64,000 bases of DNA from the NCBI GenBank assembly GCA_044892505.1, contig CM097882.1, positions 26,102,001 through 26,166,000 of the forward strand, read 5' to 3'. This document shows, one piece after another, positions 4,555 through 60,489 of the stretch (its first letter is position 1; each line of letters starts with the position of its first letter). Both the position numbers and the translations under genes were made by a program. The notes below the pieces were generated by a model. It had not been told where the DNA came from, ran no database searches, and saw only the letters and a list, made by a program, of their open reading frames with translations. Source of the DNA: Schmidtea nova. Lineage: Eukaryota.

Positions 4555-4646
<92 letters not shown>

Positions 4647-32619: not shown

Positions 32620-32803
32620 GAACTGATTGTCAAATCTTTCAAATTGTGATTAAATATTAATATTCAGCAGTGTTTTTGTTATGTTGTTTTGAGTTTTGGT
32701 ATTGTGTTTTTAATAATTCATATTCGTAACCAAATAACCCTATGATCAGTTTCATTTTTCACATCATTTAATCATAGAGTAAATATCCTAAATAAATTAT
32801 AGA

Positions 32804-33874: not shown

Positions 33875-33892
33875 TGGGGGCTCAGCCGGGAT
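33875..33892 (+). other. Primer-binding site, tRNA-Pro-like
   Basis: TGGGGGCTCAGCCGGGAT versus canonical tRNA-Pro PBS TGGGGGCTCGTCCGGGAT (2 mismatches), 6 nt after the 5' LTR. Confidence 0.8.
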
Positions 33893-35401: not shown

Positions 35402-35445
35402 TTGAGGCCAATGAGCCATATTGAATGACCTAGCTAGGCGTTATT

Positions 35446-42300: not shown

Positions 42301-45300
42301 AGCATTCTTCGAACCAACAACGGGAGAAATGAAAACGTTACCCATGTGTAAAATCGACAGGAGCATGTGTCAAACGGGAATGTCAACATTAGTATACAAA
42401 CCAAAGGTGAACGAATGTCAATTACAACTGCTACAAGGAGCACAGTTCGACGAAATCCAAGGAAAAACGTTTCAGGAAGAAGACGACGACGACAAAGCTA
42501 GAGCAAAGCATCTCAAGGAAGCTTTAGAGAATAAAAGACAACTGAAACCAGATCATAGAGAAAAACGAATAGAGATGAGAGCCACACCAACAGTGTTGAT
42601 AACCACAAATCAAGATGTGGGAATGAGATTCATAAAAGGGAAAGCAACCCTTAAGTGTAGTACAACGGTATACGAAACGAATTACCCAGGAATATATGTG
42701 TCAAAACAAGAAGTGCCAAATGCGAAACCCAAAATCGACACAATGGATATCAAACTACACTTGTATGTGAATAATAAAATGGATTTCCTATTCCATAGAG
42801 GACAAGCCTCATTACAAAAAGTGTACTACGATCTAATAAATAATGATTGTATACTAAATCGAGAAATACTAAAGACAAAATTGGCCGTAGCAATTACGAA
42901 TCCCGATAGCGCGATGCCATTATTACCACTGAGAGAAGGACATTTCGGAAGAGTGGTTGGAGAAGCAATGTATGTATACATCTGCGAAAAGACACACGCA
43001 TCGCTAGCAGCAACAACACAGTTGAAACCTGGAACCTGTACAAATGAGTTAGAAATCGATTACAAAGGAAAAGTACGATACGTTCAACCAGTGACGAGAA
43101 TCATCAATCCACCAGGGTTTGAACCAAATCCATTCAACTGTAGTAATGCGTATGGACCGCTTTATCAGAAACCAGATGGTAAATGGGTTATGTTCCCAGG
43201 AAGATCCGAAGTGATAGCACCAAGAGAATTCGAGCTAATGCAGTTGTCAAAGGATAGGCAATTCAGCGACGTGGATGTCTCAAACAATGGAATATATAGC
43301 CCAAAGGATTTAGAAGCAGCAAGGCAGAATATATTATTCCCAGCGAGAAGAGAAGCATTACTGTCAAATATCGTAACGATAACAGGAGGAACGGATTATC
43401 GAGAAGGACCGAATTATGAACTATTGTTGTCACCAGCACATTTCAAAAAAGCCACAGAAAACATGATGAAAGCAATGTGGGGAAGATTTCTGATATTCGG
43501 ACAAATGATGGCTGGAATACTGGGGGTTATATTAATCATCCAAATCGTCAGAGTAATAATAACACAAATGTTAGCATGTTTTGACATCTACAAGAGAGAA
43601 AAGAAAGTGAATTGGAAAATGGTAGTAGGATTTTTACCATTCCTTGCGAAAACGATGGTGTTACACGGTCACTCAAAAGATATCCACCGAATAAAAAGAC
43701 TCCTGAAGATATTAGCAAAAATGAAGGGAACAGATGAAGAAGTAGGACGCAAATTTAAAAAGATAATGAACGACGAACAAGCAAGACAACAGCTCAAGAG
43801 AGAAAGAAAAGGTTTATGGGAGAGGATGAAAGGATATAAAACCCAAAATGATTCGAGTGACGACGATGATGACGATGACGACTATAAGGGAGGACAAGTG
43901 TATAAGAACCAAGCACCACAATACATCGAAAAGAATCCAGCCGACGCATGGAAATGTTACGCACCTCCACCAACCATGTATCAAGAACCACTACAAGGAG
44001 GAAAAAATAGCACGATGCAAATGATGCCAATGACAAATGTATATCCCATGATACCAGAAGATTATAAAATGAGAAGATGTAGAAGCGTAGATCCACAAGG
44101 AGATACACACACGATCGCAGTAATGTCATCAAACACAGGTGCAGTATTAACCACGACAATAGAGATTAACGGAAGGGAAATCGAAGCAATGATCGACACG
44201 GGAGCAAACATTTCCGCCATCGACATCAAATGGATACCACAAGAGCAAAGACGAGAAATAGAAAGGACAAACGTCCATGTAATTGCATGTAGCAAAGAAG
44301 TTGTAGAAGTAGCAGGAAGATGGTGGGTAAAAATACGCCATTTAAACACGGAAATCGATACGTACGTAGCTGTCATACCAGCATTAAGCGTACCTTGCAT
44401 TATCGGAACAGATTTGATGCCAGCACTATTTAAAGAGATTGTAATCGATCTCGGAACAATGAGACTAAAAGATCGCACAGGACAAATATGCGCAATAGAA
44501 GCCAAAGTGACAAGTTCAAAGCAAATGATAATACCCGCAAGAAAGGAGAAAATATGTTACGTAAAAATAGATCCGACAATCCAAGGGGATATGATTTTCG
44601 AACCAAGTAAGAGATTCGAGAAAAGAAAAGCGTTGCCAATGGCAAGAGGACTAGTTAACATAAACGATGATGGAGAAATCCCAATAAACGTAGTAAACTT
44701 CGATGAAGAGGACAAAATAATATACGAAAACGAAAGATTAGGTAAATTAACCCCAATGATGGATATCGAACTGCCAATAGAAGGAGCAGAGAAAGATAAA
44801 GAACCAACCTGGAATATTGATAGTGAATTATTAAATGAGGATCAAAGGAAGCAGCTAGAAAAACTCCTGATAGAGTATAAGGATATATTTGCAGCATCCG
44901 ATTTAGATCTAGGAACATGTGATGTCACACTACATACAATACCATTAACAGATGAAACACCAATTGCATTAAGGCCGTACAAATTAGCGGAAGCACAGAA
45001 AGCAGTAGCAGAAGCAGAAGTGAAGAAAATGTTGGATGCAGAAGTAATCGAACCAAGTTGTTCACCCTGGCAATTTCCAGTGGTAATGGTAAAGAAAAAA
45101 GACGGAACACAGAGATTCTGTATAGATTACCGAAGATTGAATACAGTGACAAAAAGAGATACTTACCCATTACCGGACATCAATGAAATGTTATTAACCT
45201 TACAGGGAGCAGCATATTTTACGTCGTTAGATCTGAAAAGCGGATATTGGCAAATAAAAATGAAGGAAGAAGATAAAGAGAAAACTGCCTTTACCATCGG

Positions 45301-48300
45301 TAGAGACCTATATCAATTTCGAAAGATGCCATTTGGATTAACGAACGCACCAGCATCATTTCAGAGATGCATGAATTTCGTCACCCACGGAATAAAGCAG
45401 TGCATGGTCTACATCGACGACTTATTGATTTACTCTAGTACATTCGAACAACACATACAGGATATTCGAGATGTATTCGTTAGACTTAGACAATGGAAGT
45501 TAAAACTCAAGCCATCAAAATGCGATTGGGCAAAAGAAAAGGTTACATTTTTAGGACATATAGTGTCAGCAAAAGGAAAAGAACCGGATCCTAGAAATAT
45601 CGACAAGGTAAAAGAATGTCCAGTACCAAAAACAATAACCCAAATACAAGAATTTCTCGGACTATGTGGATACTATAGAAAGTTTATAAAAGATTACGCT
45701 GATATCGCAAAGCCTATACAGGAACTGGTAAAGAAAGATGTATCCTTTATATGGGGAGATGAACAACAAACAGCCTTTGAAACATTGAGAGATAAACTGA
45801 TAACCGCACCCATATTAGTACACCCAGACTTTAAGAAGCCATTCTTACTTGCAACGGATGCAAGCGGATACGCAGCGGGAGCAGTATTAGGACAATACGA
45901 TGACGAAGGAAAAGAACGTGTAATCGGATATTATAGCCGGACATTCAAAAAGCATGAGAAAAATTACTCAGTAACAGAACGGGAAGCATTAGCGATTATA
46001 CTAGCAATAAAACATTTTAAATATTTATTATGGGGACACATCATCTGCATAACAACAGATCACCAACCGCTTGTATGGTTAGGACAGCACAAGGAAACAT
46101 CCAGTAGATTAATGCGATGGGCAATGCAGTTACAGGAGTACTCACCAGACATAAAATTTAAATCAGGAAAAGCGAATGCGAATGCAGATTGTATGTCAAG
46201 ACTGACATTTCCGGAATTAACCGATCCTGATGTACAACGAATTTGTGTGTTAATAGCGGAAGATTTGGATTTTAGTGAGTTAAAGAAGGATCAACAGGAA
46301 GACAAAGAATTAGGACAGATCATAGAGTTCCTAACATCTCGAAATAGGGAGATATTTAAGGATAATAAGGAATTAAAGGAACATATAGGAAAATATCAAC
46401 ATCGCTACATAATAAATAAAGGATGGTTATTAATACAAGACGGGGAAAAGAGATTGATGTGTTTACCGGAAAACAGAAGGAAAGAGATAATGATCCAATA
46501 CCATGATGGGAAATTGGGAGGTCATATGTCCGAGAAAAAGACCATAAATCGTATGAGACAAAAATATTATTGGCGAACAATGGAAGAAGATATAAAGGAA
46601 TGGATTAAAAATTGTCTAACTTGCGCAACCAGAAAGGATAGTGGGAAGAAATGGAAGAACCCACTACAACCAATGCCGATACCAGCAGAGCCAATGACAA
46701 CTATAGCAATGGACGTAATAGGACCATTACCAGAAAGTTTAAACGGAAATATTTATATATTGGTGATAACGGATTATCTGACGAAATTCCCGGAAGCATT
46801 TGCCATGCAAGACCAAAAAGCAAAAACCGTAGCAAAGATTCTAGTAGAAGACATATGTTGCAGATACGGAACTCCAAAACAAATACTCACAGACCAAGGA
46901 ACTAATTTTATGAGCGAGTTATTGAACGAGGTGACAAACTATTTCCGAATAGCAAAATTGAGAACTTCACCATATCACCCGCAAACGAATGGACAAACGG
47001 AGCGATTCAACGGCACATTGATTAGAATGTTATCAAACTACGTCAGCAGACACCAAACTGACTGGGATGAATACATAAAATTATGTTTAATGGCATACCG
47101 AATGTCGATACATGCAGCAACAAAACTAAGCCCATTTCAACTTATGTATGGAAGAGAATGCAACATGCCCATAGATTTAGAGTATCAGCCACCATTATCA
47201 CAATATATGGAAGACGACGACTACGTAACCAAATTCAAAGAAAGAATGCAGGAAATATGGAAAACGGCAGAACTCAACATTAAATTTTATCAGGAAAGTT
47301 ATAAGGACTTACACGACCAGAAGAAAAATGTTAAAGCGAACGATCTAAAACCAGGAGATTGGGTGATAATAGAAACTCCCGAAATAATACCAGGAACAGT
47401 TAAGAAACTCCAAAGACCTGGAAGAGGACCTTATGAAATTATATACAAAAAGGACAATAATGTCAAAGTTAAGCTAATAAATCGACCGTTAATACGACCC
47501 ATATATGTAAACACCTGCAGATGTAAGAAGGTGCCTAAAACGATAACTACAACACCAGAAAATCGAATAATAACTAGATCACAAACAGCCAGGATAAATA
47601 TGCTCAGAGCTAATGTAACTGAAGACGACAAAGCAGAAATAAGGCAAAAGGAAATCAGAAATAAAGAAATCATATTGAAGGCGAGAGAGATAATGGGAAG
47701 ATGGCATGTTAGAGACGAAGCAGGCATATCAAGGGATATTAGACATATGATTAGCCGTTACGCACAAGGATTACCAACCGAACCAATTATTTCTGAATTA
47801 TTGGAAAAAATCCCTGAAATACTCTTATTGAAAGATGTAGGAGGACAACCAGCCTTACATAATGCGATAGAGTGTAAAAACATGGAAAGAGCAAAAGAAT
47901 TCCTAAAAATCGCAAAAGAAACAAACCAAAACTTAGACGTAGGGAATCGGGAACAAGAAACTCCATTAATGACAGCCGCAATCCACCAAGCAGATAAAGA
48001 AATGATAGATCTATTGATAAAAGCTCATTTCAGTTGGACAGAAAGAGATAGAGAGGACAAAACAGTGCTAAATCACGTAATATGGAGTTCTCACCAACCA
48101 ATGCTGAAATACATAATAGCTAACTCCACTTGGGAGATAGACGAACTAGTTAAAGGAGATATTATCAAAGAGGCAATCAAAGTCGGTAAATGCAACACGA
48201 TCCGTAAGTTAATCAAATGGAAACGACCAGAAGATGATACATGGGTCCTAGACATAAACGAAGTATACAGCGAAGGACAAAACGCACTGTTAAGATACCT

Positions 48301-51300
48301 TTTGAAATTTACTTGTGATCAGAAGACATTACTAACCTTATTAGACAGAGGAAACATAAACATCACAAAGAATGAAGAAGAATACAAATTCGATAAAGAG
48401 AAGGAAGCCTTATTCAATAAGATTAGGAAATGGTGTGCGAAACCACTTGATAAACTAATAACATACAAAGACATAAACAATTTTAACGAGAAATACCAGA
48501 CAATAGTAAGTGAGTATGAGGAAATAATAAAAATCTTAAACCATCCCGAAAAATGCAAACAGGTTTTAGAGAAAAAAGAAAGAGAAAGTAACAAGAAACT
48601 CACACCACTCTTCAAAGCAGAAGCACCATACCAAGCTAGACTAGATGCGATACAAGAAAAAGCAAAAGAATTGTTACCGGAATTCGAGAATAGTAAACAT
48701 GCACTGGAAATACTCGGCGCATTAGTTGAAAAAGTACACGCATACGCAAAAGGAACATACAATGGTAACGACATAGTAATAATAAAAAAGGAGATGCCAG
48801 TAACATTCCTATTACCAAAAGACGGAATAATGCCCATACATAGAGCTCTACGAAATGGCAAAGATAGGAAAGTAATGGAAATTGCAAGAGTAATGCTAAA
48901 TTGCGGAAGCAATATGAATATGATAGACGAGAAAGGAGATACACTTATGGTATTTGCAGCAAGGGCCAAAACGAAAACAAAGGTATTAGAAGAACTATAC
49001 AAAGCAGGTGCAGGACTTACAGGAAAGACAGATAAAGATAATTCGATATTGGATGTAGCATTATTAACACACAATTGGGAAATGGTCAATTTCATTAAAA
49101 CCGTCCCAAATCAGGAAGAAATAGATCACCTAACTGATACGGTCAAGAAACCCAGTGTACTAGCAATGATGAACAACGTCGAACTAACAGAATCAATACT
49201 TACGTGGATAAATCCTAATACTAACGAACCAGCATTCAGGATTAATAAATTTACAGAACATAACCAAAACTGGTGTATAAGAAGTGCCTTAATAACGTAT
49301 AAATGGCCAGAGATATTGAAGATGTTTATGGAAAGAAAGGATCTAAGAATCACAACCAGCCCGAAAGAAGAAAAATACACAGGCAAATGGAAAGAATTGA
49401 TGAAGACATACATCAACAATTGGATCAAGGCCAAAAAGGAAATCTTGGAACATAAATCCACTAACAAAGTAATACCGGAGCAGGTAGAAACACAAGAATT
49501 TGAGGCAAGTAATCTAACGACATTAGCATATGCGAAACTAATAGAAGAAATAAATGTCGAGGACGACATTTTCGACGAACCAGGGGGAGATGACAACACA
49601 GATAGTGACGACGGTAACAACTCAGATAACTCAAGCGATCACGAACCACCCGATAAAGAGGAAAACGAGAGAAAAGACAAGAAACGAGACAAAGAAGAAA
49701 AGAAAAGTGAAGACGAAAAACAAAGAGATGAAGATGGAGAACAAGGAAAAAACGACCAAAGAGATAAAAATGACACCCAAAGAACAGGTTATAAATCAAC
49801 CATAAAACCATTCTTCAAACCAGAATTACTATTATTAACAGTGATTTTAACGTTAATTAACCCAAGTCAAGGAATGACATGTGAAGAAAGGGCAATAATA
49901 CAAATAAAAAACGCAAAAGGAATCGAACGAGTATGTTGGTCGAAAAAGGACAAAATCACGGAACAAAATAGGCCGATGGATTGCAGAATCTCAAAACACG
50001 AGCAAGAAATCATAGAGATCAATGACTTAGATCTAGATACCTGGTACAAAATATGCACCGTTAGAAAACAAAAGCATCCAAGATCACACAACACAATCGC
50101 ATGTGCAAAATACCAAACACCTAAAGCAGCCATGACAATACAACAGTCACCCAAAGGAGATTACATCCTCGGAAAATGTGGAAGAACAGAGACACAGGGA
50201 ACAGAAAACAAAAAACCCCCGGCAATAGATAAGCAAACAACACCAACTATACGAATTACAATAAAGAGGCCCGAAGCAAGAGTGGCCACAAACGAAACCG
50301 AAAGAGTGTCTTACCAAATGGAAGTATTATGCTTAGCACTCATACTAATAATAATAAAACGATTAGAGGAAGGAATAGAAATTGAAACTATGACAATAAC
50401 AGAAGTGGAAGATACACAGAACACTAACATAAAATGTTGGGCGAGGAATGACGAAGAAATCGGTGTAAATGAAATAAGGAAAAGTCGAAAACCCACAACA
50501 AACAAAGTAATTAAAGTATCCGAAGTAAGAGCAGACAAGACGTACAAACTATGCCTACTTGAGAAAGAGAGGAACAAGAAAGGTACCACAAAATGTAAAA
50601 CATTCCAACCTGGAGAGGTAATAAAGTTCCGAAGGAGAACGAGGAAGAGAAATAAACAAATCAAGCAGAAACTGAACATAACATTAGAAATAAAAGAAAT
50701 AGAACCAAATGTGAAAGGAGTATGCTGGAGGAAGTACGAAAAGGAAACAAATAAAAGAACGACACCACAATGTCAAACAAGCACAGGAGCAACAACGATA
50801 CAAATAAAAGGTCTAGAAAGTAAACAAACCTACGAAATATGTTTGGTAAAGAAAAATGATCAGATAACGATAAACGACCTAGAATGCGGAATACATACAA
50901 CTTCATCCGGAACAAGAACCAAAACGTTAACACGGAAAAATAAAAGGAAACAACGAAACAAAGAAAAACCGAAGTACACCACTACCTTTAAAAATAATAA
51001 ACAACCAATAAGCCAGGAAGCCACGACAAAACCCGAGAAAAAGACATCAGCAACTCTGACATTATGGAAAATAGAGAATAAAACATTAGAAATATGTTGG
51101 ATAATAGTTCAGAAACCTATAAGAAGACAATCAAGAGAGTGCAGAAAAACAAATAAAGAAATCAAGATCGAAAAACTACAATTTAATAGCGAGTATGAAG
51201 TATGTGCAATAGAAAGAATGGACGCACTAGGAAACCAACAAGAAAGATGCGAAACCTACTATACACCAGCGAACGCAACATCAAAAGGAATAACAAGGAA

Positions 51301-53275
51301 ACTCGAATTCAGGGAACTAAGCCAAACGAATGAACAAATGGACGTAGAAAAAACAATAACCGACCCTCAAGCAAAATGGACACCCGAAGAAGTTATCAAG
51401 GAAGTCAAAAGAAAGCAAGAGGAACGGGAACAATTAATGAGAAAACTAAAGGGACAATACGGAATAATGTCCAACCAAAGCGAATCTATACAAACAGACG
51501 AGAATAAAGAAATTAAAGAACTAATTGGCTTAGGAATATTAACAGCGACCATTCCAGTAATAATCGCGTTATCAGCTATATGGATACGCAAGATAAGCCC
51601 AAGAAAATCAACAACCCAATGGCTAAATATAGATAATACAAGCCATGGAGTAGAAATACTAGAAGAAAAAGCACGAGAAGAACCAAATAAGAAAGAAGCG
51701 AAAAGCGGAAAACTAGGAATAAACAACAAAGACAAGGAAATAAAAGAGATTAAAGGCGAAGAGAAAAAATATGAAAGGCGGACCAGAAGCCTACCGCAGA
51801 GTTCAAAATGGTTGGGTCTAACAATAATATTGACATTAATTAATAGGGAAGAAGCAATAAACCCACAGACAGGAATAAAAGTAATAAATGTCCAGGAAGT
51901 CGAGAAAATATGTTGGTATAGAGAAGATGAACCAATTGGAGAAAATAACCCACTAAAATGCATAATCAGAAAATCCGACCAGGATATCGTACGAATAGAA
52001 GAAATGGATGGAGGAACCATACATCGGATATGCATAATAGAAAAGGAAAAGAAGTCGGGGCTACCTAAGACAGTCGTATGCCAGAAATATGAAACGCCTA
52101 GACTTGAATGGTATAGAGTAAAACCAACAAAGAAAGAAATCAAAAACACAATAGATCAACCAGCAACTCAGATAAGAAACACGACGGATAAACCAGGAGA
52201 AGGGGAGAGAAGCATAAATAACACGAGAGAAGGAGCATCACCCCAACAAGATGTCGTATGCATAGCGTTAATAATAGCAATGTCCAAACGTATCAATAAA
52301 GGAATAACAATAGAACAAATGGCCATGACAATAAGGAGAAAAGGCCGGAGTAGCAACAAAATATGCTGGGGATGGTACAACGGACAAAAAGAATACCAAG
52401 TTCAGACAAGCGACGAATCACGAACAAACAAGGAAACCGAAATACAAGAAATACAAATGGACGGAGAAGGAAGTATATGTATATGGGAGAAAGGAATCCA
52501 AGAAGATCAACCCGGAATAGAAAAGTGCAAGACATTCCAAAAAGGAGAAATTCTGAAATTCGATGAAAAAGAATTAACCAAAACAGAAAGAACTCTGACA
52601 TTAACAGGACTTGATCAGACAGTGAAAGGAATATGTTGGACAAAACATAACCCAGAAGGAGAAGAAGGTAACCTAACCCACTGTAAAGAAACAGGGAATA
52701 AAGAAAAAGTCGAATTAAAGAAAATGGAAGTAAATAGGACATACGTGATATGTACCTTCACCAGAAAAGGTTCAGAAAAACCAGAATGCGGATTATATCA
52801 GATCTCAGAGAAACCACAACAACAGATCAAACCAGGAAACGTGGAAAACCGAACAAAAGAAAATAACGTCAAACAACTACTAAATCGCCATTGGTCTACA
52901 CAAGAAGTAATGAACAAAGTCAAGAATCAAGTACAGAAGGAGAAGAAGCCAGAGGCTCAAACCCAAAATGAGATAAAAGCGAATCAGAATAAAATCAAAG
53001 CAACAAACCGTGGAAAAACAGTAATAGGATTAATCAGTATAGGAATATTAATAGCATATGGGATAATGACGACAAGCATGATAATATATTGGAGATACAG
53101 AAAGAGAAACAAAGCGACAGCCATACAATGGCCAGATATTAAAATTATGAAGCAAAGAATAGAAATACCAGAAGAAATACAGCAAGAATTCCAAAGAAGA
53201 ACGAAAGGTAAAGAATTCTGGAAACAAATAGAAGATGAAGAACGATACGAGGAAAAGACGACAATGAGGGTATAG
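36311..53275 (+). CDS. Single ~5,650-aa polyprotein: Gag-Ubl x3-Bcl2-like-Env-PR-RT-RH-IN-ANK-FN3-like/TM modules
   Basis: Frame open from 36278 to the stop at 53273-53275 with no frameshift; first ATG at 36797, so the true start is uncertain. Domain evidence in the sub-features. Confidence 0.97.
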   Translation: MRKGAKSVVVKPTEKKVDSNSNKKDKTSTTTKSTKKQKAGKDNPQGSKSRKIIRDKSITENDKLSIISNSSSNKENQAEPKENQASETESDETNNDNIEEVENEVEPEIEINASDNESIISDNEGIRETESDSSSSKTEDEHNNELETRGNESKITQDSGIEMGEPREEIKDKFSGEPFNGDASKLETFLKEFGIFVEVCKWKAETTVSRIQLYLKDSALDLYLEAKNGTNPPTSWTAIKDFFQQTFGINKVLSEAFIEFSMRKQKMNESNAVYASELKKLAKSVFKDGGPINEELMAAIFIGGLRRPDIRAQVGCQGCKTIDQALETANRFELHMIGSEGRIYLAMDTAQTEPEVNLNNHIPNSQQLNRPPPQRRNEGNKVQNFGNQNNYNPQGQTKQCKTCGKLGHWQQECYQNLNCGKCGVKGHSESRCSTIICFNCGRPGHYSRNCGQKSNQRGNWQSNGNRPNYGNQANTVNRPDYGNQQNNNNNNQNKTTPKEIHLMQEVQRLTELINNTTRGNPQTNQQQISMMRKIESENERLNRESQARHAQEWARIQREDEQKQQERERQPLRINMLRATNQTDTREKETTLEMNSINPNPADNESRKEIVQKDEEVEKEAEKGEETEINQEERRKIWKKGMMVIMPNDHMFRFQYNAKEKVEILFNKVNQMIPGVTKLPREAFLQIEGAPSVKLKLTDIWENMGVVETKRNVMRIKEIEPEEIPPPIRHETRIRRIFEGKMIRRRLKEIDELGKKMEKVKIIEDKSEPTPEIDKNEPEPTENIQGETNQTAHINMLRNTTREFSDEEEDSDISSLAGDILKESEDENKEMKVIKTSEPTQIKVDEIQKLLDNSLEVIYNEEFMDKKQYRKFMKALLQMNYKEWLQDREVDMLNRYVGKLIEEPLLNYTISIIINTSTPRIWIKTPFTDDIYRWVEDRLGSSYRNKFIYSQNRLVKKRTHLVETGIWPGEITLLSICDEKEEENLQEVAREANACFERRIKPRLEYEKERVLRKNLNFLIEQIIPQVKKHRKELMRSEYEKLKRCIECIRDTSHTRWSQISHDKLIAKMGKTMFRQGKITDLKISVELPNEDTKEIEVVADCTIKELINVINETLVQREPEDEWEDDIIIQYNEHVLWDHDERRLYKIGIWDNHQTIHVSRMDDTPRETAKDEKRERERRKEVVRKLQQIVDIYRNWRIWPEWENVLEELNLNRRIRTPVEKQWNEKGKCWEPKEGEYEEEYKRGIEDDCEPEIGRVCMVTRKATPIDLDGPETAAMWLEREKQKTEEFVEILKTNAHGKRKLIKGLADFFAVNGEDITCLRKVAKAITEYKRVNEWCPEQLDHVIRKWRNQEFSQEIPQKVHLRIIYPNKDKEELWVGIAEKIRDIKKKLRYEPPFHLQHQGRSLDNSLEIGITPAQLDLMNTLTVEAIAGQPLKRKEENHKLHGSISTPSPMKSVLTPGTSSRRSETTPRGTRERTPPQPYDVDEILTDSDDMIEELTELTKEKEDNIFERIQELPTTIQVTNTGEAEVEEEIIIEEVNDLTEDETRGANVENVQLTQEMERWLEERANEPRDVTEETGRATRFVETGTGMDRRHRGRPKTDPANIVVRNKDEKRQDQWELCLRKLNKIAEMKEKETTPICQGEEWISKIIMEILAIIDPELRKYWRITEISEKAKSLHSAIAPILPEFIKEKTKSNHLDWQGTTTLIKKLTEGAETDNKYVIAIAYTIYNLLTLSRGRPKPTALERHIKNTAKIIAREIEPYVINIGGWETFIKANQKKTQAKNMKKKFEKILEELEKEQAGTGNAKSSMNLSAIIMMMLIWMISTDSATAFEVFDCDQMKLGEKYSLRGTEQCKDATPVELQKIKKEQWYHVYQEAELIKTMVNECKVQKTRFAFYCGRGHYSAIVMPGTEREPIVLQGEDCEALFKHGEVTTRDKIKIRGKPGMMMQQTYYVAGRITGGEGYCQGETYPIFGVPATNLVVMDTYIVELKSYEAFFEPTTGEMKTLPMCKIDRSMCQTGMSTLVYKPKVNECQLQLLQGAQFDEIQGKTFQEEDDDDKARAKHLKEALENKRQLKPDHREKRIEMRATPTVLITTNQDVGMRFIKGKATLKCSTTVYETNYPGIYVSKQEVPNAKPKIDTMDIKLHLYVNNKMDFLFHRGQASLQKVYYDLINNDCILNREILKTKLAVAITNPDSAMPLLPLREGHFGRVVGEAMYVYICEKTHASLAATTQLKPGTCTNELEIDYKGKVRYVQPVTRIINPPGFEPNPFNCSNAYGPLYQKPDGKWVMFPGRSEVIAPREFELMQLSKDRQFSDVDVSNNGIYSPKDLEAARQNILFPARREALLSNIVTITGGTDYREGPNYELLLSPAHFKKATENMMKAMWGRFLIFGQMMAGILGVILIIQIVRVIITQMLACFDIYKREKKVNWKMVVGFLPFLAKTMVLHGHSKDIHRIKRLLKILAKMKGTDEEVGRKFKKIMNDEQARQQLKRERKGLWERMKGYKTQNDSSDDDDDDDDYKGGQVYKNQAPQYIEKNPADAWKCYAPPPTMYQEPLQGGKNSTMQMMPMTNVYPMIPEDYKMRRCRSVDPQGDTHTIAVMSSNTGAVLTTTIEINGREIEAMIDTGANISAIDIKWIPQEQRREIERTNVHVIACSKEVVEVAGRWWVKIRHLNTEIDTYVAVIPALSVPCIIGTDLMPALFKEIVIDLGTMRLKDRTGQICAIEAKVTSSKQMIIPARKEKICYVKIDPTIQGDMIFEPSKRFEKRKALPMARGLVNINDDGEIPINVVNFDEEDKIIYENERLGKLTPMMDIELPIEGAEKDKEPTWNIDSELLNEDQRKQLEKLLIEYKDIFAASDLDLGTCDVTLHTIPLTDETPIALRPYKLAEAQKAVAEAEVKKMLDAEVIEPSCSPWQFPVVMVKKKDGTQRFCIDYRRLNTVTKRDTYPLPDINEMLLTLQGAAYFTSLDLKSGYWQIKMKEEDKEKTAFTIGRDLYQFRKMPFGLTNAPASFQRCMNFVTHGIKQCMVYIDDLLIYSSTFEQHIQDIRDVFVRLRQWKLKLKPSKCDWAKEKVTFLGHIVSAKGKEPDPRNIDKVKECPVPKTITQIQEFLGLCGYYRKFIKDYADIAKPIQELVKKDVSFIWGDEQQTAFETLRDKLITAPILVHPDFKKPFLLATDASGYAAGAVLGQYDDEGKERVIGYYSRTFKKHEKNYSVTEREALAIILAIKHFKYLLWGHIICITTDHQPLVWLGQHKETSSRLMRWAMQLQEYSPDIKFKSGKANANADCMSRLTFPELTDPDVQRICVLIAEDLDFSELKKDQQEDKELGQIIEFLTSRNREIFKDNKELKEHIGKYQHRYIINKGWLLIQDGEKRLMCLPENRRKEIMIQYHDGKLGGHMSEKKTINRMRQKYYWRTMEEDIKEWIKNCLTCATRKDSGKKWKNPLQPMPIPAEPMTTIAMDVIGPLPESLNGNIYILVITDYLTKFPEAFAMQDQKAKTVAKILVEDICCRYGTPKQILTDQGTNFMSELLNEVTNYFRIAKLRTSPYHPQTNGQTERFNGTLIRMLSNYVSRHQTDWDEYIKLCLMAYRMSIHAATKLSPFQLMYGRECNMPIDLEYQPPLSQYMEDDDYVTKFKERMQEIWKTAELNIKFYQESYKDLHDQKKNVKANDLKPGDWVIIETPEIIPGTVKKLQRPGRGPYEIIYKKDNNVKVKLINRPLIRPIYVNTCRCKKVPKTITTTPENRIITRSQTARINMLRANVTEDDKAEIRQKEIRNKEIILKAREIMGRWHVRDEAGISRDIRHMISRYAQGLPTEPIISELLEKIPEILLLKDVGGQPALHNAIECKNMERAKEFLKIAKETNQNLDVGNREQETPLMTAAIHQADKEMIDLLIKAHFSWTERDREDKTVLNHVIWSSHQPMLKYIIANSTWEIDELVKGDIIKEAIKVGKCNTIRKLIKWKRPEDDTWVLDINEVYSEGQNALLRYLLKFTCDQKTLLTLLDRGNINITKNEEEYKFDKEKEALFNKIRKWCAKPLDKLITYKDINNFNEKYQTIVSEYEEIIKILNHPEKCKQVLEKKERESNKKLTPLFKAEAPYQARLDAIQEKAKELLPEFENSKHALEILGALVEKVHAYAKGTYNGNDIVIIKKEMPVTFLLPKDGIMPIHRALRNGKDRKVMEIARVMLNCGSNMNMIDEKGDTLMVFAARAKTKTKVLEELYKAGAGLTGKTDKDNSILDVALLTHNWEMVNFIKTVPNQEEIDHLTDTVKKPSVLAMMNNVELTESILTWINPNTNEPAFRINKFTEHNQNWCIRSALITYKWPEILKMFMERKDLRITTSPKEEKYTGKWKELMKTYINNWIKAKKEILEHKSTNKVIPEQVETQEFEASNLTTLAYAKLIEEINVEDDIFDEPGGDDNTDSDDGNNSDNSSDHEPPDKEENERKDKKRDKEEKKSEDEKQRDEDGEQGKNDQRDKNDTQRTGYKSTIKPFFKPELLLLTVILTLINPSQGMTCEERAIIQIKNAKGIERVCWSKKDKITEQNRPMDCRISKHEQEIIEINDLDLDTWYKICTVRKQKHPRSHNTIACAKYQTPKAAMTIQQSPKGDYILGKCGRTETQGTENKKPPAIDKQTTPTIRITIKRPEARVATNETERVSYQMEVLCLALILIIIKRLEEGIEIETMTITEVEDTQNTNIKCWARNDEEIGVNEIRKSRKPTTNKVIKVSEVRADKTYKLCLLEKERNKKGTTKCKTFQPGEVIKFRRRTRKRNKQIKQKLNITLEIKEIEPNVKGVCWRKYEKETNKRTTPQCQTSTGATTIQIKGLESKQTYEICLVKKNDQITINDLECGIHTTSSGTRTKTLTRKNKRKQRNKEKPKYTTTFKNNKQPISQEATTKPEKKTSATLTLWKIENKTLEICWIIVQKPIRRQSRECRKTNKEIKIEKLQFNSEYEVCAIERMDALGNQQERCETYYTPANATSKGITRKLEFRELSQTNEQMDVEKTITDPQAKWTPEEVIKEVKRKQEEREQLMRKLKGQYGIMSNQSESIQTDENKEIKELIGLGILTATIPVIIALSAIWIRKISPRKSTTQWLNIDNTSHGVEILEEKAREEPNKKEAKSGKLGINNKDKEIKEIKGEEKKYERRTRSLPQSSKWLGLTIILTLINREEAINPQTGIKVINVQEVEKICWYREDEPIGENNPLKCIIRKSDQDIVRIEEMDGGTIHRICIIEKEKKSGLPKTVVCQKYETPRLEWYRVKPTKKEIKNTIDQPATQIRNTTDKPGEGERSINNTREGASPQQDVVCIALIIAMSKRINKGITIEQMAMTIRRKGRSSNKICWGWYNGQKEYQVQTSDESRTNKETEIQEIQMDGEGSICIWEKGIQEDQPGIEKCKTFQKGEILKFDEKELTKTERTLTLTGLDQTVKGICWTKHNPEGEEGNLTHCKETGNKEKVELKKMEVNRTYVICTFTRKGSEKPECGLYQISEKPQQQIKPGNVENRTKENNVKQLLNRHWSTQEVMNKVKNQVQKEKKPEAQTQNEIKANQNKIKATNRGKTVIGLISIGILIAYGIMTTSMIIYWRYRKRNKATAIQWPDIKIMKQRIEIPEEIQQEFQRRTKGKEFWKQIEDEERYEEKTTMRV
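36797..37660 (+). other. gag: Gag capsid-like domain + three CCHC zinc knuckles
   Basis: FNGDASKLETFL..LYL..SWTAIK..F..RKQ..ES..Y..EL..FIGGL; CKTCGKLGHWQQEC, CGKCGVKGHSESRC, CFNCGRPGHYSRNC (37508-37660). Confidence 0.92.
38228..40597 (+). other. Three ubiquitin-like (beta-grasp) domains: 38228-38463, 39554-39793, 40394-40597
   Basis: Best copy LKISVELPNEDTKEIEVVADCTIKELINVI..IIIQYNEHVL..DERRLYKIGI..TIHV follows the ubiquitin hydrophobic pattern; other two weaker; no C-terminal GG. Confidence 0.6.
41252..41650 (+). other. Bcl-2-like domain
   Basis: Helical region ending in BH2-like IAREIEPYVINIGGWETF; degenerate BH1 position (LTEGAETDNKYVIAIAY). Confidence 0.7.
41747..43670 (+). other. env: Envelope glycoprotein, chuvirus/gB-like class III fusogen, embedded in the polyprotein
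   Basis: Signal-like MNLSAIIMMMLIWMISTDSATA then FEVFDC; Cys pattern and motifs (CKVQKTRFAFYCG, AGRITGGEGYCQG, LYVNNKMDF..DC.LNREIL, GEAMYVYIC, CTNEL, PVTRI..C, NGIYSPKDLE..ILFP) colinear with chuviral-type glycoproteins; REKR at 42557-42568; TM 43487-43582. Confidence 0.85.
44108..44480 (+). other. Retropepsin aspartic protease (followed by a dUTPase-like spacer to ~44760)
   Basis: IEAMIDTGANISAI (DTG at 44195) and CIIGTDL. Confidence 0.95.
44810..46210 (+). other. pol: Reverse transcriptase + RNase H
   Basis: SPW..PVVMVKKKDG..RFCIDYRRLN, LDLKSGYWQI, MPFGLTNAPASFQR, YIDD (45410); TDASGYAAGAVL, EREALAI, TDHQPL, ADCMSR. Confidence 0.98.
46250..47590 (+). other. Integrase (HHCC, DD35E, GPY/F)
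   Basis: YHDGKLGGH..CLTC; MDVIGPL, TDQGTNF, GQTERFN; GRGPYEI. No chromodomain seen. Confidence 0.97.
47830..49100 (+). other. Two ankyrin-repeat clusters
   Basis: GQPALHNAI, QETPLMTAA, DKTVLNHVI; GIMPIHRAL, GDTLMVFAA, DNSILDVAL. Confidence 0.85.
49820..53275 (+). other. Two paralogous membrane modules with seven Cys-bearing FN3-like domains
   Basis: Module A 49820-51640 (4 domains, TM 51521-51583); module B 51809-53275 (3 domains, TM 53021-53092); repeated CW..C..I..L...T.Y.IC..C...T motif. Confidence 0.65.
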
Positions 53276-53401: not shown

Positions 53402-53758
53402 ATGACCGAACAGGACGAAACAACTGAAATAACTATGGCTATGAGATGGAAAGCACAATGTGATTTATTAGTACGAACAGTCAACTCATTACAGAACCAA
53501 TTAGCGGAAAGACAAATGTTATTATCAGAAAGTTATAACAATTGTTTCGAACAATTACACAGAATAGAGGAACAACAAAGAGCGATAACTGAACTCACCA
53601 GAGAAAATCAAACGATAAGCAACACCAATCAAAGACAAGCAATAGAAATAAACCATTTAACACGAGGAGAAAGAGAAGGATCCGAAGAAGGATGGATGAG
53701 TTGGGTAATAAATAGATTAAACAACGAAGCGGAACCAGATTCAACGAATGAGCCATAG
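53402..53758 (+). CDS. 118-aa coiled-coil orphan
   Basis: ATG in TAGAAAATG context, heptad pattern, element-like codon bias. Confidence 0.75.
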   Translation: MTEQDETTEITMAMRWKAQCDLLVRTVNSLQNQLAERQMLLSESYNNCFEQLHRIEEQQRAITELTRENQTISNTNQRQAIEINHLTRGEREGSEEGWMSWVINRLNNEAEPDSTNEP

Positions 53759-53852
53759 ATAAATAAAGCGGAAAACTGTAAATATGTAAAAATAAAAACA
53801 AGAAAAATCCAAAAAATAAATGACAAGTCGAATGTATATATTATTGTAGAAA

Positions 53853-55229
53853 ATGGACAGAGAAGAACGAATAATCGAAATTTTGAGACTAGAAAACAGA
53901 AAATGGAGTAAGAGGCTCACATGCGGGAAGTGTAACAATTTATTACGAGAACCCAGACAAACGATATGTGGATGTAGAATATGTACAAAATGTATACAAG
54001 AATTGGATGCAACAGGAATAACAACATGCCCAGAATGTAAAGAAGGAGGAATAGTGTTGGACGAAACCAGAACGGACAAAGCAACCCAAAGAGAAATTAT
54101 GAGCACCACAACGGAGTGCGTAAATACACCTTGTACATGGCAAGGACAAATAAGTAATCTGGAAAACCATATGGAAAAATGCGAGGAAAAGAGAGCCGAA
54201 TGCGAGAAATGCCAACAGACAATAACTCTAAAGAAGAGAGAACAACACAAGGAAGAATGTAAAGAAGAAGAAATCGCATGCGAGTATTGTGAAGCCCGAG
54301 AAACAAGGAGAAAAATCGAAGAAGAACACTTGAATATAACAGAGGAGAAAGTATGCGGACAATATGTAAGTAAATGTCCAAACAATTGTGAAATAACAGA
54401 AGAAATAAAATTACATGAACATTGGAAACTATGTACCGAAAGGCCAAGAGAATGCCCATATAACAAGCATGGATGCAAGGAAAAGCGGACGCGAAAAACA
54501 ATGCAACAACATCTAGAAGAAGCAGCACTAACGCATGTGGAAATGACAAACGAAACGACTAAAGAAACGGAACGGACAATTCAGAAATTAGAAAAAGAAG
54601 TAGAATCACATAAAATAATGATGAGTTTACTACTAGAAACAAGAGAGCAGTTTGAACTAACTCGCGAAAGAATGGAAAAGAAAATAATAGCCATAGAAGA
54701 ATTAGGAAAAGGAATGAAAATACAATATAATCAATTAATACGAGAAATTGACGAAAGAAGGGACTTACCAATCGCACCTTACCTATGGAAAGTAACAGAT
54801 TTCAGAGACAAATTAGCAGAAGCCAGAAATATGACGAAAACAGCAGTAATAAGCCCACCATTTTATTTATGGAAAAACGGGGTTAAAATAAGATTGAAAG
54901 TATACCCAAATGGAGACGGAAGAGGACAAGGAACACACGTGTCAATATTCTTCTCACTATGTAAAGGAGAATACGATGACCTAATAAAATGGCCCTTGAA
55001 AATAGGAGTCATTATAAGAATCAAAAGTACGGGAAAACCAGTAGAAAAGTTCTTTGAAACAGACAAACATTCGAGTACGAGCGAAAAGCCAACGACAGAA
55101 TGCGGACTAGCAGCAGGAGAACCAATGTTTATAAGGAAAGAAAACCTATGGGAGCAACTATATACAGACACGCTATACATAGAGATGGAGAGGCATGAGA
55201 AAGCAGACAGAAAAGGATGGTTGGCGTAA
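53853..55229 (+). CDS. Intronless full-length TRAF homologue (RING, TRAF Zn fingers, coiled coil, MATH)
   Basis: CGKC..CGCRICTKC..CPEC RING; C..C..H..C fingers; YLWKVTDF..SPPFY..YPNGDGRGQGTHVSIFF..GEYDDLIKWP MATH. Confidence 0.96.
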   Translation: MDREERIIEILRLENRKWSKRLTCGKCNNLLREPRQTICGCRICTKCIQELDATGITTCPECKEGGIVLDETRTDKATQREIMSTTTECVNTPCTWQGQISNLENHMEKCEEKRAECEKCQQTITLKKREQHKEECKEEEIACEYCEARETRRKIEEEHLNITEEKVCGQYVSKCPNNCEITEEIKLHEHWKLCTERPRECPYNKHGCKEKRTRKTMQQHLEEAALTHVEMTNETTKETERTIQKLEKEVESHKIMMSLLLETREQFELTRERMEKKIIAIEELGKGMKIQYNQLIREIDERRDLPIAPYLWKVTDFRDKLAEARNMTKTAVISPPFYLWKNGVKIRLKVYPNGDGRGQGTHVSIFFSLCKGEYDDLIKWPLKIGVIIRIKSTGKPVEKFFETDKHSSTSEKPTTECGLAAGEPMFIRKENLWEQLYTDTLYIEMERHEKADRKGWLA

Positions 55230-55342: not shown

Positions 55343-56404
55343 ATGGGAAATATAGAAGTAACCTTACAAGAAGTAACAGTACATCAAGACGAAATGATCA
55401 GAAATCACATGGAGCGGATTGGGATATGGATTCATGCCTATTATCGAAAACAGGAAGAATTGGAAAGACAAACCCAAGCACTAAGAGAAGCCGAGAAAAC
55501 GAATCAAAGAAGTCGAGAAAAAATAGAAGAAGTCTACAAACTACTAAGACAACAAAACGAATACTACAAAGAGATGATGAAAGAGCGACGAGAGGATAGG
55601 GATAGACAACAAATAAAAACAGACCATAAGATTCAGTCAATCACAGAACAAGCAAGATATTGGAAGAAAGAGGCAAAAGACTCTTACAAGGAAGCAAGGG
55701 AGATAATAGAACGAACAGCGTACAGCGATGATTGGAAACTGTTTAAAGAGATCGATGAATTAAAAGAGGAATTAGGGCAAAAGATCAGTCAAGAAGCGTC
55801 AAATAAAGTATGGAGTAAGAAAAGACAACAATTCATCAGAGAACAAGCCAAGAAAATAAAAGAATTAACTTATCAAGTACAAAGAATGGGAGAAGATTTA
55901 GCCAATCAAGAACAATTAAAAGGTATGCTGACCGGAATGTGGAATCACAAGGAAGAAAACATGAAAAGAGACATAAATGGATATCAAGGAGTGATCACCC
56001 AGAAGAAAATAGAATTAAAAAGAACTAAAGAAAGACTGGAAGAAACGAGGCAGAGTTATGAAGAGAACATAACAAATTTGGCAAAAGAAAACGAAGAACT
56101 GAGAAAGAAGTTGGCAGAAAAACCAACACCAATAAAAGAAACAAGTATCACAGCAGCAGTGACCGAAATGATGGAGAAGGAAGAGAGAGAGAAAAAATTG
56201 GCAGAACTAGAAAAACAAATTGAAACCCTAACAGAACAGGCGAACTATCTGGAATACTTATTAGATGAAGAGATCCAGATATCCCACACATACCGAGAAG
56301 AAGTCGAAATGTGGAGGAGCACGGTAATATGGATGCCACTCCCCATAAATCAGGTGGAACCTCAAGACGAAGGTTTTTACGAACCCAACGAAACCCTTGT
56401 ATAA
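55343..56404 (+). CDS. 353-aa coiled-coil orphan
   Basis: Long E/K/Q/R heptad-rich ORF; TAGAAATG start; no recognised domain. Confidence 0.85.
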   Translation: MGNIEVTLQEVTVHQDEMIRNHMERIGIWIHAYYRKQEELERQTQALREAEKTNQRSREKIEEVYKLLRQQNEYYKEMMKERREDRDRQQIKTDHKIQSITEQARYWKKEAKDSYKEAREIIERTAYSDDWKLFKEIDELKEELGQKISQEASNKVWSKKRQQFIREQAKKIKELTYQVQRMGEDLANQEQLKGMLTGMWNHKEENMKRDINGYQGVITQKKIELKRTKERLEETRQSYEENITNLAKENEELRKKLAEKPTPIKETSITAAVTEMMEKEEREKKLAELEKQIETLTEQANYLEYLLDEEIQISHTYREEVEMWRSTVIWMPLPINQVEPQDEGFYEPNETLV

Positions 56405-56479: not shown

Positions 56480-57049
56480 ATGAGAAAGCTCGCAATAGCA
56501 ACACTCCTATGGTTAACAACCATTACCCTACAGAGAGAAGATCTACAACTAACCGAAACCCAATTACGAGTTCTACCCGACAAAATCTACCAGAAAGTAG
56601 ACAGCCTAATCGAAGAAGTAATTAAAGAAATCAACGAATTCCGACAGAAATATCCCTACAATCAAGATCATCAAATCCAACAAATCTTCGATAACCAACA
56701 ACTGAAACTAGAAGAAACCCGAAAAATCCTAAAAGAAGGTAGAGAACCCATAAAAAGCCTATCCCAAGCTGAAATAGAATATCAAGAGAAATGGATCATA
56801 GCAATCATCATAATCCTAGCAGTCAGCACAACTATCATCGCAATCACAATCCTGCTTGCCTCGTATAGAATAAAAATCCTAAAACAAAAGCAGAAAATCT
56901 ACAACCAAACCTCCAGACGAGATAACCGAGCTCAAAGACGAATAAGGAGCCATCTCAACCACATTCAAACCCACTACGAGCTACAAATGATCAACGAGAG
57001 GACCCGAACTCAACCCCAAGCGAGCCAGACGATCGAACAAATTGTATAA
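56480..57049 (+). CDS. 189-aa predicted type I membrane orphan
   Basis: ATG at 56480 in frame with the listed GTG ORF; signal-like MRKLAIATLLWLTTIT; TM WIIAIIIILAVSTTIIAITILLA followed by a basic tail. Confidence 0.78.
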   Translation: MRKLAIATLLWLTTITLQREDLQLTETQLRVLPDKIYQKVDSLIEEVIKEINEFRQKYPYNQDHQIQQIFDNQQLKLEETRKILKEGREPIKSLSQAEIEYQEKWIIAIIIILAVSTTIIAITILLASYRIKILKQKQKIYNQTSRRDNRAQRRIRSHLNHIQTHYELQMINERTRTQPQASQTIEQIV

Positions 57050-57251: not shown

Positions 57252-58641
57252 TGTTGGGCCCGCCAAATCACCTAAAAACACAATAAAACGAACAAAAGCA
57301 TGAAACAATAAAGAAATAATAAAAATAAAAATAGCAAGAAAAACAAATTAAAAATAACAATAAAACGACAAATAATAATTGATAAATTTTCAGTAAAAGG
57401 AAATTTTGAAAATAAACCGGTAAACAACCGCAAAAGGGGGCCTGAAATAAGAAAAAATATAATTAAATAAAATAATAGTACAAATAATTAATTAATTACT
57501 TGGAAAATCAGGACCACCCAGCGAGAAACCGGAAAAGGAAACAAAATAATGTTTAGATTAGAATAAAATAATAAAAATACTTTGATGGACGGCCTGATCC
57601 TGATTGGTCAATCCAACCAGACGGATCAGTATAAATACCGATCCAAAAATCATAACTCAACAGTTAAGACGTTTTACATTTCACTTACAATCAAGACTAA
57701 ACTTTGATTTAAGTAACATTTCATTTAACGAAGCGAGAATTTTTTGAAAAAACAGAATTCAAGTACGGAACGTAATTTTGATTGTTATTTTTTGTGTACC
57801 CATGATTTTTGTTTGATTAAAATTTTATATGTAAACGTTATTTTATTTTTTCATTGATTATTGACACTTTAATGCATATAGCTATACTTCCTATGCTGCT
57901 CACGCGGCGAGGGAGTCCGAGTCGTCGTCGTGGGGCCTCAGGGTCTCACATGGCGGTTCAACCTTTTTATTATTTAATTTAGATGTGAAGTTTTATCTAG
58001 AAAATTTGATTGAATTTTTAGTCTAATACAGACCATTTGCAAATTATTTAATTTTGGGTTGCACAACGGACGAAGGTCGAGGGCCAAATATGTAGATTGC
58101 GGAGGGCGGATGGATAAGGAGGGACACACCATGGTAGGGCATGCTCAGTCTTTAAATTTTTGGTAAATTGAATCGAAAGGGAACCTCCCGCATGGAAAAC
58201 AGTGAGCAACAACTAAAATAAATTTGAATAATTTCGTTGGAATGAGAAAATCCAACGTAGTCCAAAGTCCGATTTCATTCGGAATCAGCATTTCGCCTAC
58301 AAAATTTTAATATCGATAAATTCCGATCGCGATGGAATGCGTCGGAAAATCCAAATTAAATTAGTTACTAAAAATAGGCCGATCGTCGTATATGACGCGG
58401 TTTCCCAAGTTATTCTCCGATCGCTGTATATAGCGCGGAAATCTTGATTAAATTTGATAATTCCTGAATGCTGCATATAGCACAGGACTAATTATGAACT
58501 CTTTATTCCGACCGTGGTAGATCACGGCGGAGAGAAATAAAATTAATCTTATTTTTTAACGGTTGTGATTATATGCAACATAATTAAATTATCAACGAAT
58601 TCCCCCTTAACTCATATTTATATCCAATAAATGTAATATAG

Positions 58642-59121
58642 ATGTCGACAGCTGAACTTACAAATCAATTAACGCAACTACGGAATATGGAGCAAGGGAA
58701 TCTGCGGAATGAAAATATCTCGCAGCTCAAGGATCTACCAGCATCGATATTGCGAACCCTCAACTGCCAAATGTATAAGTGGCGACAGGGGTTTGGCCGA
58801 AAATGCCCGTTCTCGATATGGACAGGAGGGCACGACCAAATACTCTATCGAGGAGGACCGAACTGGCCGATTTCTCAAAGGCCGTACTCAAACAAATTTG
58901 GCCGACTTGTCGTACTGATCAAGGACACCGATGGACAGACAAGCCGTGTAATTTATTGGGGGCATATCCCTCGTCGGGAACTATGCCAACTAGGCCTACA
59001 CGAATTCCTGCCACGAAAACCGTTCGGCAAGGAGTGCCAGAAAGGACAACCCTCATTCTCTTGGGCTCGTCTCCGTCAGAAACCGATTAACAGCGAATTA
59101 CATAGCCTGTTTCGGAGATAA
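58642..59121 (+). CDS. ORF-L1 copy in 3' LTR
   Basis: Translation identical to 32140-32619. Confidence 0.5.
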   Translation: MSTAELTNQLTQLRNMEQGNLRNENISQLKDLPASILRTLNCQMYKWRQGFGRKCPFSIWTGGHDQILYRGGPNWPISQRPYSNKFGRLVVLIKDTDGQTSRVIYWGHIPRRELCQLGLHEFLPRKPFGKECQKGQPSFSWARLRQKPINSELHSLFRR

Positions 59122-59305
59122 GAACTGATTGTCAAATCTTTCAAATTGTGATTAAATATTAATATTCAGCAGTGTTTTTGTTATGTTGTTTTGAGTTTTG
59201 GTATTGTGTTTTTAATAATTCATATTCGTAACCAAATAACCCTATGATCAGTTTCATTTTTCACATCATTTAATCATAGAGTAAATATCCTAAATAAATT
59301 ATAGA

Positions 59306-59902
59306 ATGAACCCAGATTTGATGCAGAAAGAATTGGAAAAGATGTGGCGGATTCGGAGAGCCCAGGATAAGGAATTGGGTCTCCTCAAGGCACAATTGAT
59401 CAAAGCAGAGGCACAGATTGCATATTTGCGCAAAAGCTGGTTTGCTCCGGCCCGAATGAAGGAGCAAATCAGTAAAACCGAGCGCGCCCAACAGACTGCA
59501 GCCGATTACCAAATGGAATGGGAGGCTACAAAGATAGAACTCCGAAAATGCCTCCATTCCGTAACTGCCTCATACATCGAGAAGGAACTCAGAGAGCAAA
59601 TCCGTCCGATTACGTACCAAGCTTGGACGGCAGAAAAGAAGACAGTAAACTCCATTGGAACGGATGTCCCCGATTTAATTGAAAGTCGGAATGAGACAGC
59701 TCCTCCAGCCAATTCAACCACTTCATCGGCGACTGCGCACCAGAAACGCAAGCGCATTGGGCAGAAACGGCGGAGACAGAGAAAATTATTTGCCCAGCAA
59801 TTACAAATCCAAGTCGATGGTCTACATCAGATGACTGAGGAAGCATTATTGACGGAGATTTTTCCTCCGGCGGGAGTTTTTACCGAACTCATTAAAAATT
59901 AA
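59306..59902 (+). CDS. ORF-L2 copy in 3' LTR
   Basis: Translation identical to 32804-33400. Confidence 0.65.
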   Translation: MNPDLMQKELEKMWRIRRAQDKELGLLKAQLIKAEAQIAYLRKSWFAPARMKEQISKTERAQQTAADYQMEWEATKIELRKCLHSVTASYIEKELREQIRPITYQAWTAEKKTVNSIGTDVPDLIESRNETAPPANSTTSSATAHQKRKRIGQKRRRQRKLFAQQLQIQVDGLHQMTEEALLTEIFPPAGVFTELIKN

Positions 59903-60489
59903 ATAAATTGTTGCATTGGCTTAAGAATCTCATCGTTCATTTAAATTGATTTAATTAACTTTACCAATGATTAAATAAAGATAGAACAAAAGTATAAATT
60001 CAGTTTACAAAATATCGAATAGAGATAATTAAATAATTAAGCGAGCATTCGTTGAAATACTTCTCGCAGACTGAGTAATGATAAAAATAAATTTTCTGAA
60101 AGATTAACACGGAATACCTAAGGGGATGATTAAAGCGTAAGTCCTTCTAACGGCAGCAATGGACCCGTAAACATAAATGGGGAGTAGTACTAGCGATAGT
60201 GCTCACCTGCCCATCATTGTTTAACCACCCTGCGCATCACCAACTTGATTATATAGGGAAATAATCAAGGGCGCTTGAGTGTAAAATTGCAATTTTATGC
60301 ATGATCATGGATGAGGGATCCCTAGTCATTGTTAGAGCATTTTTCATCTAACCCCTCCATGAACCCAGCAAATACAACAAATAATTGAGTCAGTGGCAAA
60401 CAGTTTTTTTAATTTCTCCGGTTCTCTTTCATAATTCTTACCTCGTCTATCCATGTATGTTCTTAGAAACAGTCTTATATCTATAATAT

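Follow-up and report, generated by a model that had tools for sequence, protein, structure and literature searches.

A complete TRAF gene of flatworm type maintained as an accessory gene of Burro-type giant retroelements

In the planarian Schmidtea nova, giant LTR retroelements of Burro type carry a complete TRAF among their accessory genes, and purifying selection maintains it. The gene lies in a window of 64,000 nucleotides (GenBank assembly GCA_044892505.1, contig CM097882.1, positions 26,102,001 to 26,166,000, forward strand; coordinates below are those of this window), within a very recent 29.6-kb gag-env-pol element. To our knowledge, whole host signalling genes are seldom kept under selection by retrotransposons. 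The best explanation, to which about an even chance of being right is given, is that an anciently captured flatworm TRAF serves these elements as a selected accessory gene, probably expressed by way of a spliced subgenomic RNA, and that its product probably acts as a trimeric adaptor that recruits an IAP-type ligase and keeps the host cell alive.

The carrier element

Giant Ty3/gypsy elements of planarians, Burro and GYPSM1, reportedly go back to work by Jurka in 2007 and Grohme in 2018. The window element has the following parts, all on the forward strand.

30750..33868, +, 5' LTR (TG...CA), with the AATA target duplication ahead of it
33875..33892, +, sequence resembling a primer-binding site, 3' of the first LTR, which we take to be tRNA-Pro-like
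34228..34689, +, RING153, a 153-aa protein with a C-terminal IAP-type RING and without BIR
36797..53275, +, 5492-aa polyprotein (open frame, Pfam)
53402..53758, +, ORF118, a 118-aa accessory ORF with a homologue immediately 5' of TRAF in 5/5 TRAF-bearing families
55343..56404, +, ORF353, an accessory ORF of 353 aa that contains a coiled coil and ends in a conserved C-terminus
56480..57049, +, ORF189, a 189-aa accessory ORF with a hydrophobic stretch
57252..60370, +, 3' LTR, followed by AATA

The polyprotein contains gag zinc knuckles, a viral fusion (env) domain, protease, RT, RNase H and integrase, and it also carries ankyrin repeats and a C-terminal membrane region. The traits shared with Burro are (i) long LTRs (~3.1 kb, with 1 difference in 3120 bases), (ii) an internal region of more than 20 kb with a single polyprotein of ~5000 aa, (iii) env in frame between gag and protease, the order RT-RNase H-integrase, and ankyrin repeats. 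A BIR motif is absent from the whole window element (family A) and present in another family, E; since the motif is absent, the element is called a Burro-type relative and identity with Burro1 itself is not claimed.

Compared by description, published Burro has the same size, polyprotein layout, ankyrin repeats and MATH: section 7 of PMC6431247 describes an element of ~30 kb with a huge gag-env-pol polyprotein, env between gag and protease, and ankyrin repeats. According to the same source, the motifs on record are MATH_TRAF_C, BIR and BCL2-like, accessory ORFs may also occur as polyprotein subdomains, and MATH_TRAF_C lies inside ORF1 or, in D. tigrina, in an upstream accessory ORF. TRAF-domain cargo in Burro was thus already on record; a 2019 review raised a role for the MATH domain as an idea still to be tested. 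In contrast with that published MATH, the window element and its relatives carry a complete RING-finger-coil-MATH TRAF as a downstream ORF, in five families and with its selection measured, and the RT-less family E adds a separate IAP gene after TRAF. No description of a whole TRAF or of a TRAF-IAP pair in Burro was found in the literature searched, though Jurka 2007 and Grohme 2018 with its supplements may describe these ORFs; passages of PMC11410931, PMC8532177 and PMC11663942 hold nothing on element TRAFs. The whole TRAF in five families, the family E IAP and the likely acceptor of each accessory gene are concrete targets for RNAi and binding experiments.

Several smaller features of the element were seen. 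Two ORFs of 159 and 198 aa lie inside the LTRs (at 32140-32619 and 32804-33400 in the 5' LTR, at 58642-59121 and 59306-59902 in the 3' LTR), both with an acceptor-like tract, and homologues of the 198-aa ORF recur in the LTRs of other families. The leader 5' of the polyprotein holds tandem arrays of 29 and 32 bases (35134-35731). The C-terminus of ORF353 (56363-56404) has the pattern DEG/A-F-x-E-x-x-E-(T/S)-x-V, with which ORF353 and its homologues (L191, L110, L197, L177) all end across families A, A2, B, D and E, at identities down to 28%; DEGF is retained in 29 of 30 family A copies. This ending resembles a PDZ-binding C-terminus, and the residues ahead of it may form an acidic mimic of a beta-TrCP degron.

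The TRAF protein

The TRAF ORF and its domains are arranged as follows.

53853..55229, +, full-length TRAF ORF, 458 aa (uninterrupted frame, Pfam, AlphaFold2, Foldseek)
53922..54038, +, RING with eight Cys ligands, Cys replacing the usual His (copies and matches to solved structures)
54117..54548, +, five TRAF-type zinc fingers (Pfam and a 40-protein alignment)
54525..54755, +, coiled coil (TRAF-N; predicted helix 225-301)
54780..55190, +, MATH (TRAF-C) domain (Pfam, Foldseek)

Membership of the TRAF family is supported by an N-terminal RING with zinc fingers, a coiled coil ahead of MATH, and a C-terminal MATH domain. The frame reads through 458 aa without stop or intron. In Pfam, MATH_2 is matched at residues 310-446 (E 6.5e-21), together with TRAF-mep_MATH and zf-TRAF, and no RING family is matched at E<=0.01. 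Residues 17-150 resemble the RING and zinc-finger parts of solved TRAF6, TRAF2 and TRAF5 (E 5e-14 to 3e-11), with Cys41 where these carry His (C-G-C vs C-G-H). Each of the eight ligand positions of the RING is Cys in 58-59 of the 59 covering copies, and the five C/H sets of the zinc fingers are invariant or near-invariant in the 40-protein alignment. The AlphaFold2 model, built from a 40-row alignment (mean pLDDT 91.7, pTM 0.50), has a long helix at 225-301 and then a beta domain, and Foldseek matches it to the PDB TRAF domains of TRAF1/2/3/5 (E about 1e-14). The first-pass annotation, made from the letters of the window, had described RING, zinc fingers, coiled coil and MATH as all intact, and Pfam, the solved TRAF N-termini and AlphaFold2/Foldseek agree. 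It had further called the gene intronless and A-rich like the element, as is borne out by the open frame and by the share of A at fourfold sites: 0.70 in the element TRAF, which resembles pol of the element (0.62), whereas six host TRAFs have 0.30-0.39.

That the His-to-Cys replacement is a change specific to the element was ruled out: it is common to host loci and 16 library proteins (query included), and occurs in some echinoderm TRAF3-likes as well.

Copies and purifying selection

A MATH-domain search gave 2438 candidates, and the best 150 were scored, all at >=92%, so that the sample is biased to young copies. A full open frame of 458-459 codons, with a stop-free match, is present in 125 of these 150. 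For the selection measurements, 60 of the best 150 were taken at fixed steps of the list and joined by the window copy; 59 of the resulting 61 cover TRAF.

Across the 59 copies the pairwise pN/pS of TRAF is 0.134. Elsewhere in the element it is 0.022 in pol (47 copies), 0.132 in the ankyrin region (50) and 0.305 in the C-terminal membrane region (54). Within TRAF, constraint is strongest on MATH (pN/pS 0.084), a value inflated by the picking of copies on MATH itself. When the local mutation spectrum is applied, omega is 0.18 for variants shared among copies and 0.49 for variants found in a single copy; over residues 1-305, which were not used for copy choice, the values are 0.22 and 0.65, and the RING region has 0.14 for shared variants. 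Ten of the 59 copies are broken (7 by stops, 3 by frameshifts), and shared stops number 0 against ~40 expected. The contrast between shared and single variants is the pattern expected of a gene that is selected while the elements replicate and decays after insertion. The earlier proposal that the gene is maintained by selection therefore holds, both on the dN/dS-type measure and on the absence of shared stops.

A passenger that looks intact merely through the youth of its copies would fit the near-identity of the window LTRs and the more nearly neutral single-copy variants. However, the omega of shared variants and the lack of shared stops already refute this account, unless the alignment is in error, and frames are open in five families across 36-70% protein identity; it is regarded as extremely improbable.

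Origin within the flatworm TRAFs

Phylogenetic trees place the element TRAF within the flatworm TRAF clade. A tree of 36 rows unites the six element rows (88/81) and joins two unnamed proteins to them at 92/95, and this element group lies inside a 23-row flatworm TRAF clade at 99/99. Under a mixture model, with 8 rows dropped to leave 28, support is 97 for the element group and 99 for the clade. The same clade holds seven host loci (L061, L065, L066, L067, L069, L080, L107) with host-like base composition, in which RING through MATH lies in a single open frame with a C-G-C RING; matches to element DNA near host TRAF loci, as shown for up to 8 matches per region, fall outside the frames. Library TRAFs that carry Dendrocoelum lacteum or Dugesia japonica names group with the host loci. 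Those known proteins (Dendrocoelum lacteum 'TRAF-2/-4/-5', Dugesia japonica TRAF2-like A) have the same domain order, C-G-C RING and clade, whereas the element TRAF is ~27-31% identical to them, has an element-type composition and exists in hundreds of dispersed copies.

A non-flatworm donor was rejected in AU tests whose groups were all named after the trees had been viewed (p-AU 3e-5 and 7e-5 for TRAF2-like and TRAF3-like placements). In the same series, the MATH of family C as a separate capture from the L061/L065 group was weakly rejected (p-AU 0.045).

The host origin and old age proposed by the first-pass annotation are thus upheld by the trees and the AU tests. Its argument that a gene with no introns must be a retro-captured mRNA fails: the seven same-clade host loci are already single-frame from RING to MATH, so intron absence cannot separate RNA-level from DNA-level capture. 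LTR elements usually capture genes via RNA.

No close host donor was found, the best of the scored matches being 31-37% identical. A metagenome scan with P0033, which like P0161 may be element-borne, returned 98 pattern matches and no relative. An arrangement with the host single-frame TRAFs as one clade sister to the elements is not rejected in favour of elements nested in the host group (p-AU 0.49). With both placements admissible and no close donor found, the capture is about as deep as the radiation of the host clade itself. The sister placement and the lack of a donor would also suit a reversed or shared direction, in which an element-borne copy, or one older retrocopy, gave rise to the single-frame TRAFs of the host and the element took no gene from that clade. 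This direction is judged improbable: the host genes retain host base composition, L065 and its close relatives are nearer to non-flatworm TRAFs at the start of MATH than the element rows are, and the L065 group has Dendrocoelum counterparts. Capture of a flatworm TRAF by the element is preferred.

The planarian TRAF family is expanded (PMC6109357). With its hundreds of copies, the element may make planarian TRAF/MATH genes look more numerous than they are and complicate experiments in which they are knocked down. Host TRAF/MATH genes are densely clustered, many in tandem, at about 405-455 Mb of G000:C2.

The same slot in other families

A full TRAF lies 3' of the ORF118 homologue in families A2 (69-70% identity), B (51-52%), D (43-44%) and E (36%). 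Ankyrin identities drop in parallel with it (67% in A2, 45% in B, 44% in D, 27% in E), and gag identities in the same series are 81, 60 and 50%. Since TRAF and ankyrin identities fall while env and RT of A and B stay high, TRAF appears to have moved together with the 3' block, the core having undergone recombination. The element's own RT and integrase are missing in 1/1 A2 copies, 2/2 D copies and 6/6 fetched E copies plus one further E copy; the protease, the ankyrin region and the accessory genes are still present in copies of this kind. In family C the only TRAF part is a MATH domain, which lies within a polyprotein of 4606 aa.

The polyproteins of A and B (window 36797-53275; L092-L093) form a mosaic with env at 98%, RT at 93%, gag at 60% and the ankyrin region at 45%, pointing to recombination of the core.

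In family E, TRAF is followed immediately 3' by a 389-aa BIR+RING protein, an IAP, with one Pfam BIR, no CARD match and BIRC2 as its best solved match. The TRAF-IAP pair occurs in at least 40 copies at 98-100%, and in the 30 best copies the shared-variant pN/pS is 0.08 for TRAF (2 broken) and 0.17 for IAP (1 broken). All 6 fetched upstream regions of family E lack gag, env, RT and IN, and 2 of the first 3 E-like copies met with lack both TRAF and IAP. A BIR family search found one 399-aa frame in most of the 150 places listed, and in a search for homologues of the family E IAP none of 1161 candidates was scored.

One family E copy (G000:C2:452995882-453023812; L176, L213, L214) has 5.6-kb LTRs that are 99.9% identical. 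The family carries further accessory ORFs besides TRAF and IAP, and its LTR DNA resembles that of family C, a possible helper.

A candidate splice acceptor

A short tract of the following kind precedes the TRAF gene.

53836..53849, +, A/T-rich tract with a terminal AG, similar to a splice acceptor and 3 bases 5' of the TRAF start codon (putative acceptor)

An A/T-rich tract with AG, 0-4 bases upstream, is found at 6 of 8 ORF starts and at 4 of 575 other ATGs, a comparison whose p-value is overstated because the motif was defined after the sites had been inspected. The AG ahead of TRAF is invariant in 59/59 copies; a similar tract stands ahead of TRAF in A2, B and D and, in E, ahead of the second in-frame ATG. 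Contigs from four runs of one study, in which all 30 bins were covered, contain no joint at the proposed acceptors and are uninformative on expression. The position of the tracts suggests that the accessory ORFs are expressed as spliced subgenomic RNAs, and TRAF RNA would be made by splicing, in cis or in trans, to the AG preceding the start codon.

Possible function

The TRAF protein would form a trimer and would depend mainly on a partner ligase (a host IAP, or the family E IAP in trans) and less on the RING that it carries; the outcome for the cell that hosts the element would be pro-survival. Family A has no BIR protein, so its IAP partner must come from elsewhere. A Glu is kept in the element coiled coils, aligned with a stretch of TRAF2 that we take to be its cIAP motif, and gives a weak hint of cIAP-type binding. 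RING153 has a XIAP/cIAP-like RING (E 1e-10), its IAP likeness is confined to that RING, and its atlas matches are generic RING clusters only. The coiled coil of TRAF2 is bound by cIAPs through BIR1 (PMC6262405), and RING153, having no BIR, is therefore an unlikely partner by that route. The first-pass annotation had noted that TRAFs partner with cIAPs and had suggested that this one possibly works with RING153. The link between TRAF and IAP gains from family E, where a BIR-RING IAP adjoins TRAF, while the partnership with RING153 is doubtful.

A role in the particle cycle, with TRAF as adaptor or ligase on the membrane or Gag proteins of the element and possibly acting with RING153, is considered unlikely. 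RING153 homologues occur in A, A2, B, C and E, and copies lacking RT/IN still encode the protease, the ankyrin region and the accessory genes, as such a role would have it. However, no RING153 homologue was detected in two fetched family D regions, and family E offers no gag or env target in cis. In addition, a scan with classical TRAF-binding motif patterns found none in the polyprotein's last 92 residues, ORF118, ORF189 or RING153; scattered short matches were seen in ORF353 and TRAF itself only.

The main rival to a pro-survival adaptor is that TRAF acts as a decoy or damps the immune and stress signalling of the host: it would occupy receptor tails or join host trimers and block signalling, with no need of an IAP. 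This is a real though minority possibility. MATH is the most constrained part (with the inflation noted above), family C retains MATH only, and the element RING has Lys/Asn at Ile/Leu positions of TRAF6, presumably the E2-binding residues. Planarian TRAFs also respond to infection (PMC7586133). A pure decoy, however, would not need the long selection on RING and five fingers (omega 0.14-0.22), nor its pairing with an IAP in family E.

The pro-survival adaptor finds a parallel in the host, where planarian TRAFs are required for cell survival (PMC7586133, PMC8807557) and cell death rises on TRAF knockdown (PMC7586133). A TRAF fold does not by itself settle which way the effect goes: ORF111L of ISKNV, a viral TRAF, promotes apoptosis via caspase-8 (PMC3352826). 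ORF111L and the TRAF-likes of large DNA viruses are likewise host TRAFs on mobile genetic parasites; they differ from the element TRAF in belonging to DNA viruses and having other donors. Nor is a whole TRAF needed in every lineage, given the E-like copies without TRAF and IAP and the MATH-only family C. BURRO1 RNAi left the smedwi-2 phenotype unchanged, a result that addresses a different question and lends no support here (PMC8532177).

The pair in family E recalls vertebrate TRAF2-cIAP1/2 as described in PMC6262405: a TRAF with coiled coil and MATH, and likewise a BIR+RING IAP beside it. In contrast with that system, the family E IAP has one BIR and no CARD match, family A has no BIR, and the pairing is one of neighbouring genes. 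A more speculative extension, to which a low probability is attached, is that the Burro TRAF-IAP pair is a transplanted survival module: family E, without gag, env, RT or integrase, would persist on its selected TRAF and IAP, and could supply IAP in trans to TRAF-only families such as that of the window element. If true, retroelement families would divide labour and rewire host cell-death signalling, in an animal that depends on its own TRAFs to survive and regenerate.

Other repeats

Two features of the window are unrelated to the Burro-type element: a transposase remnant at 1156-3295 (DUF4371, Pfam), labelled hAT-like by our assumption, and a 120-base repeat array at 4007-4863. Elsewhere, at G000:C1:59328000-59335000 (L095-L096), Polinton/Maverick-like ORFs (ATPase, integrase, capsid-like) were recognised by eye.
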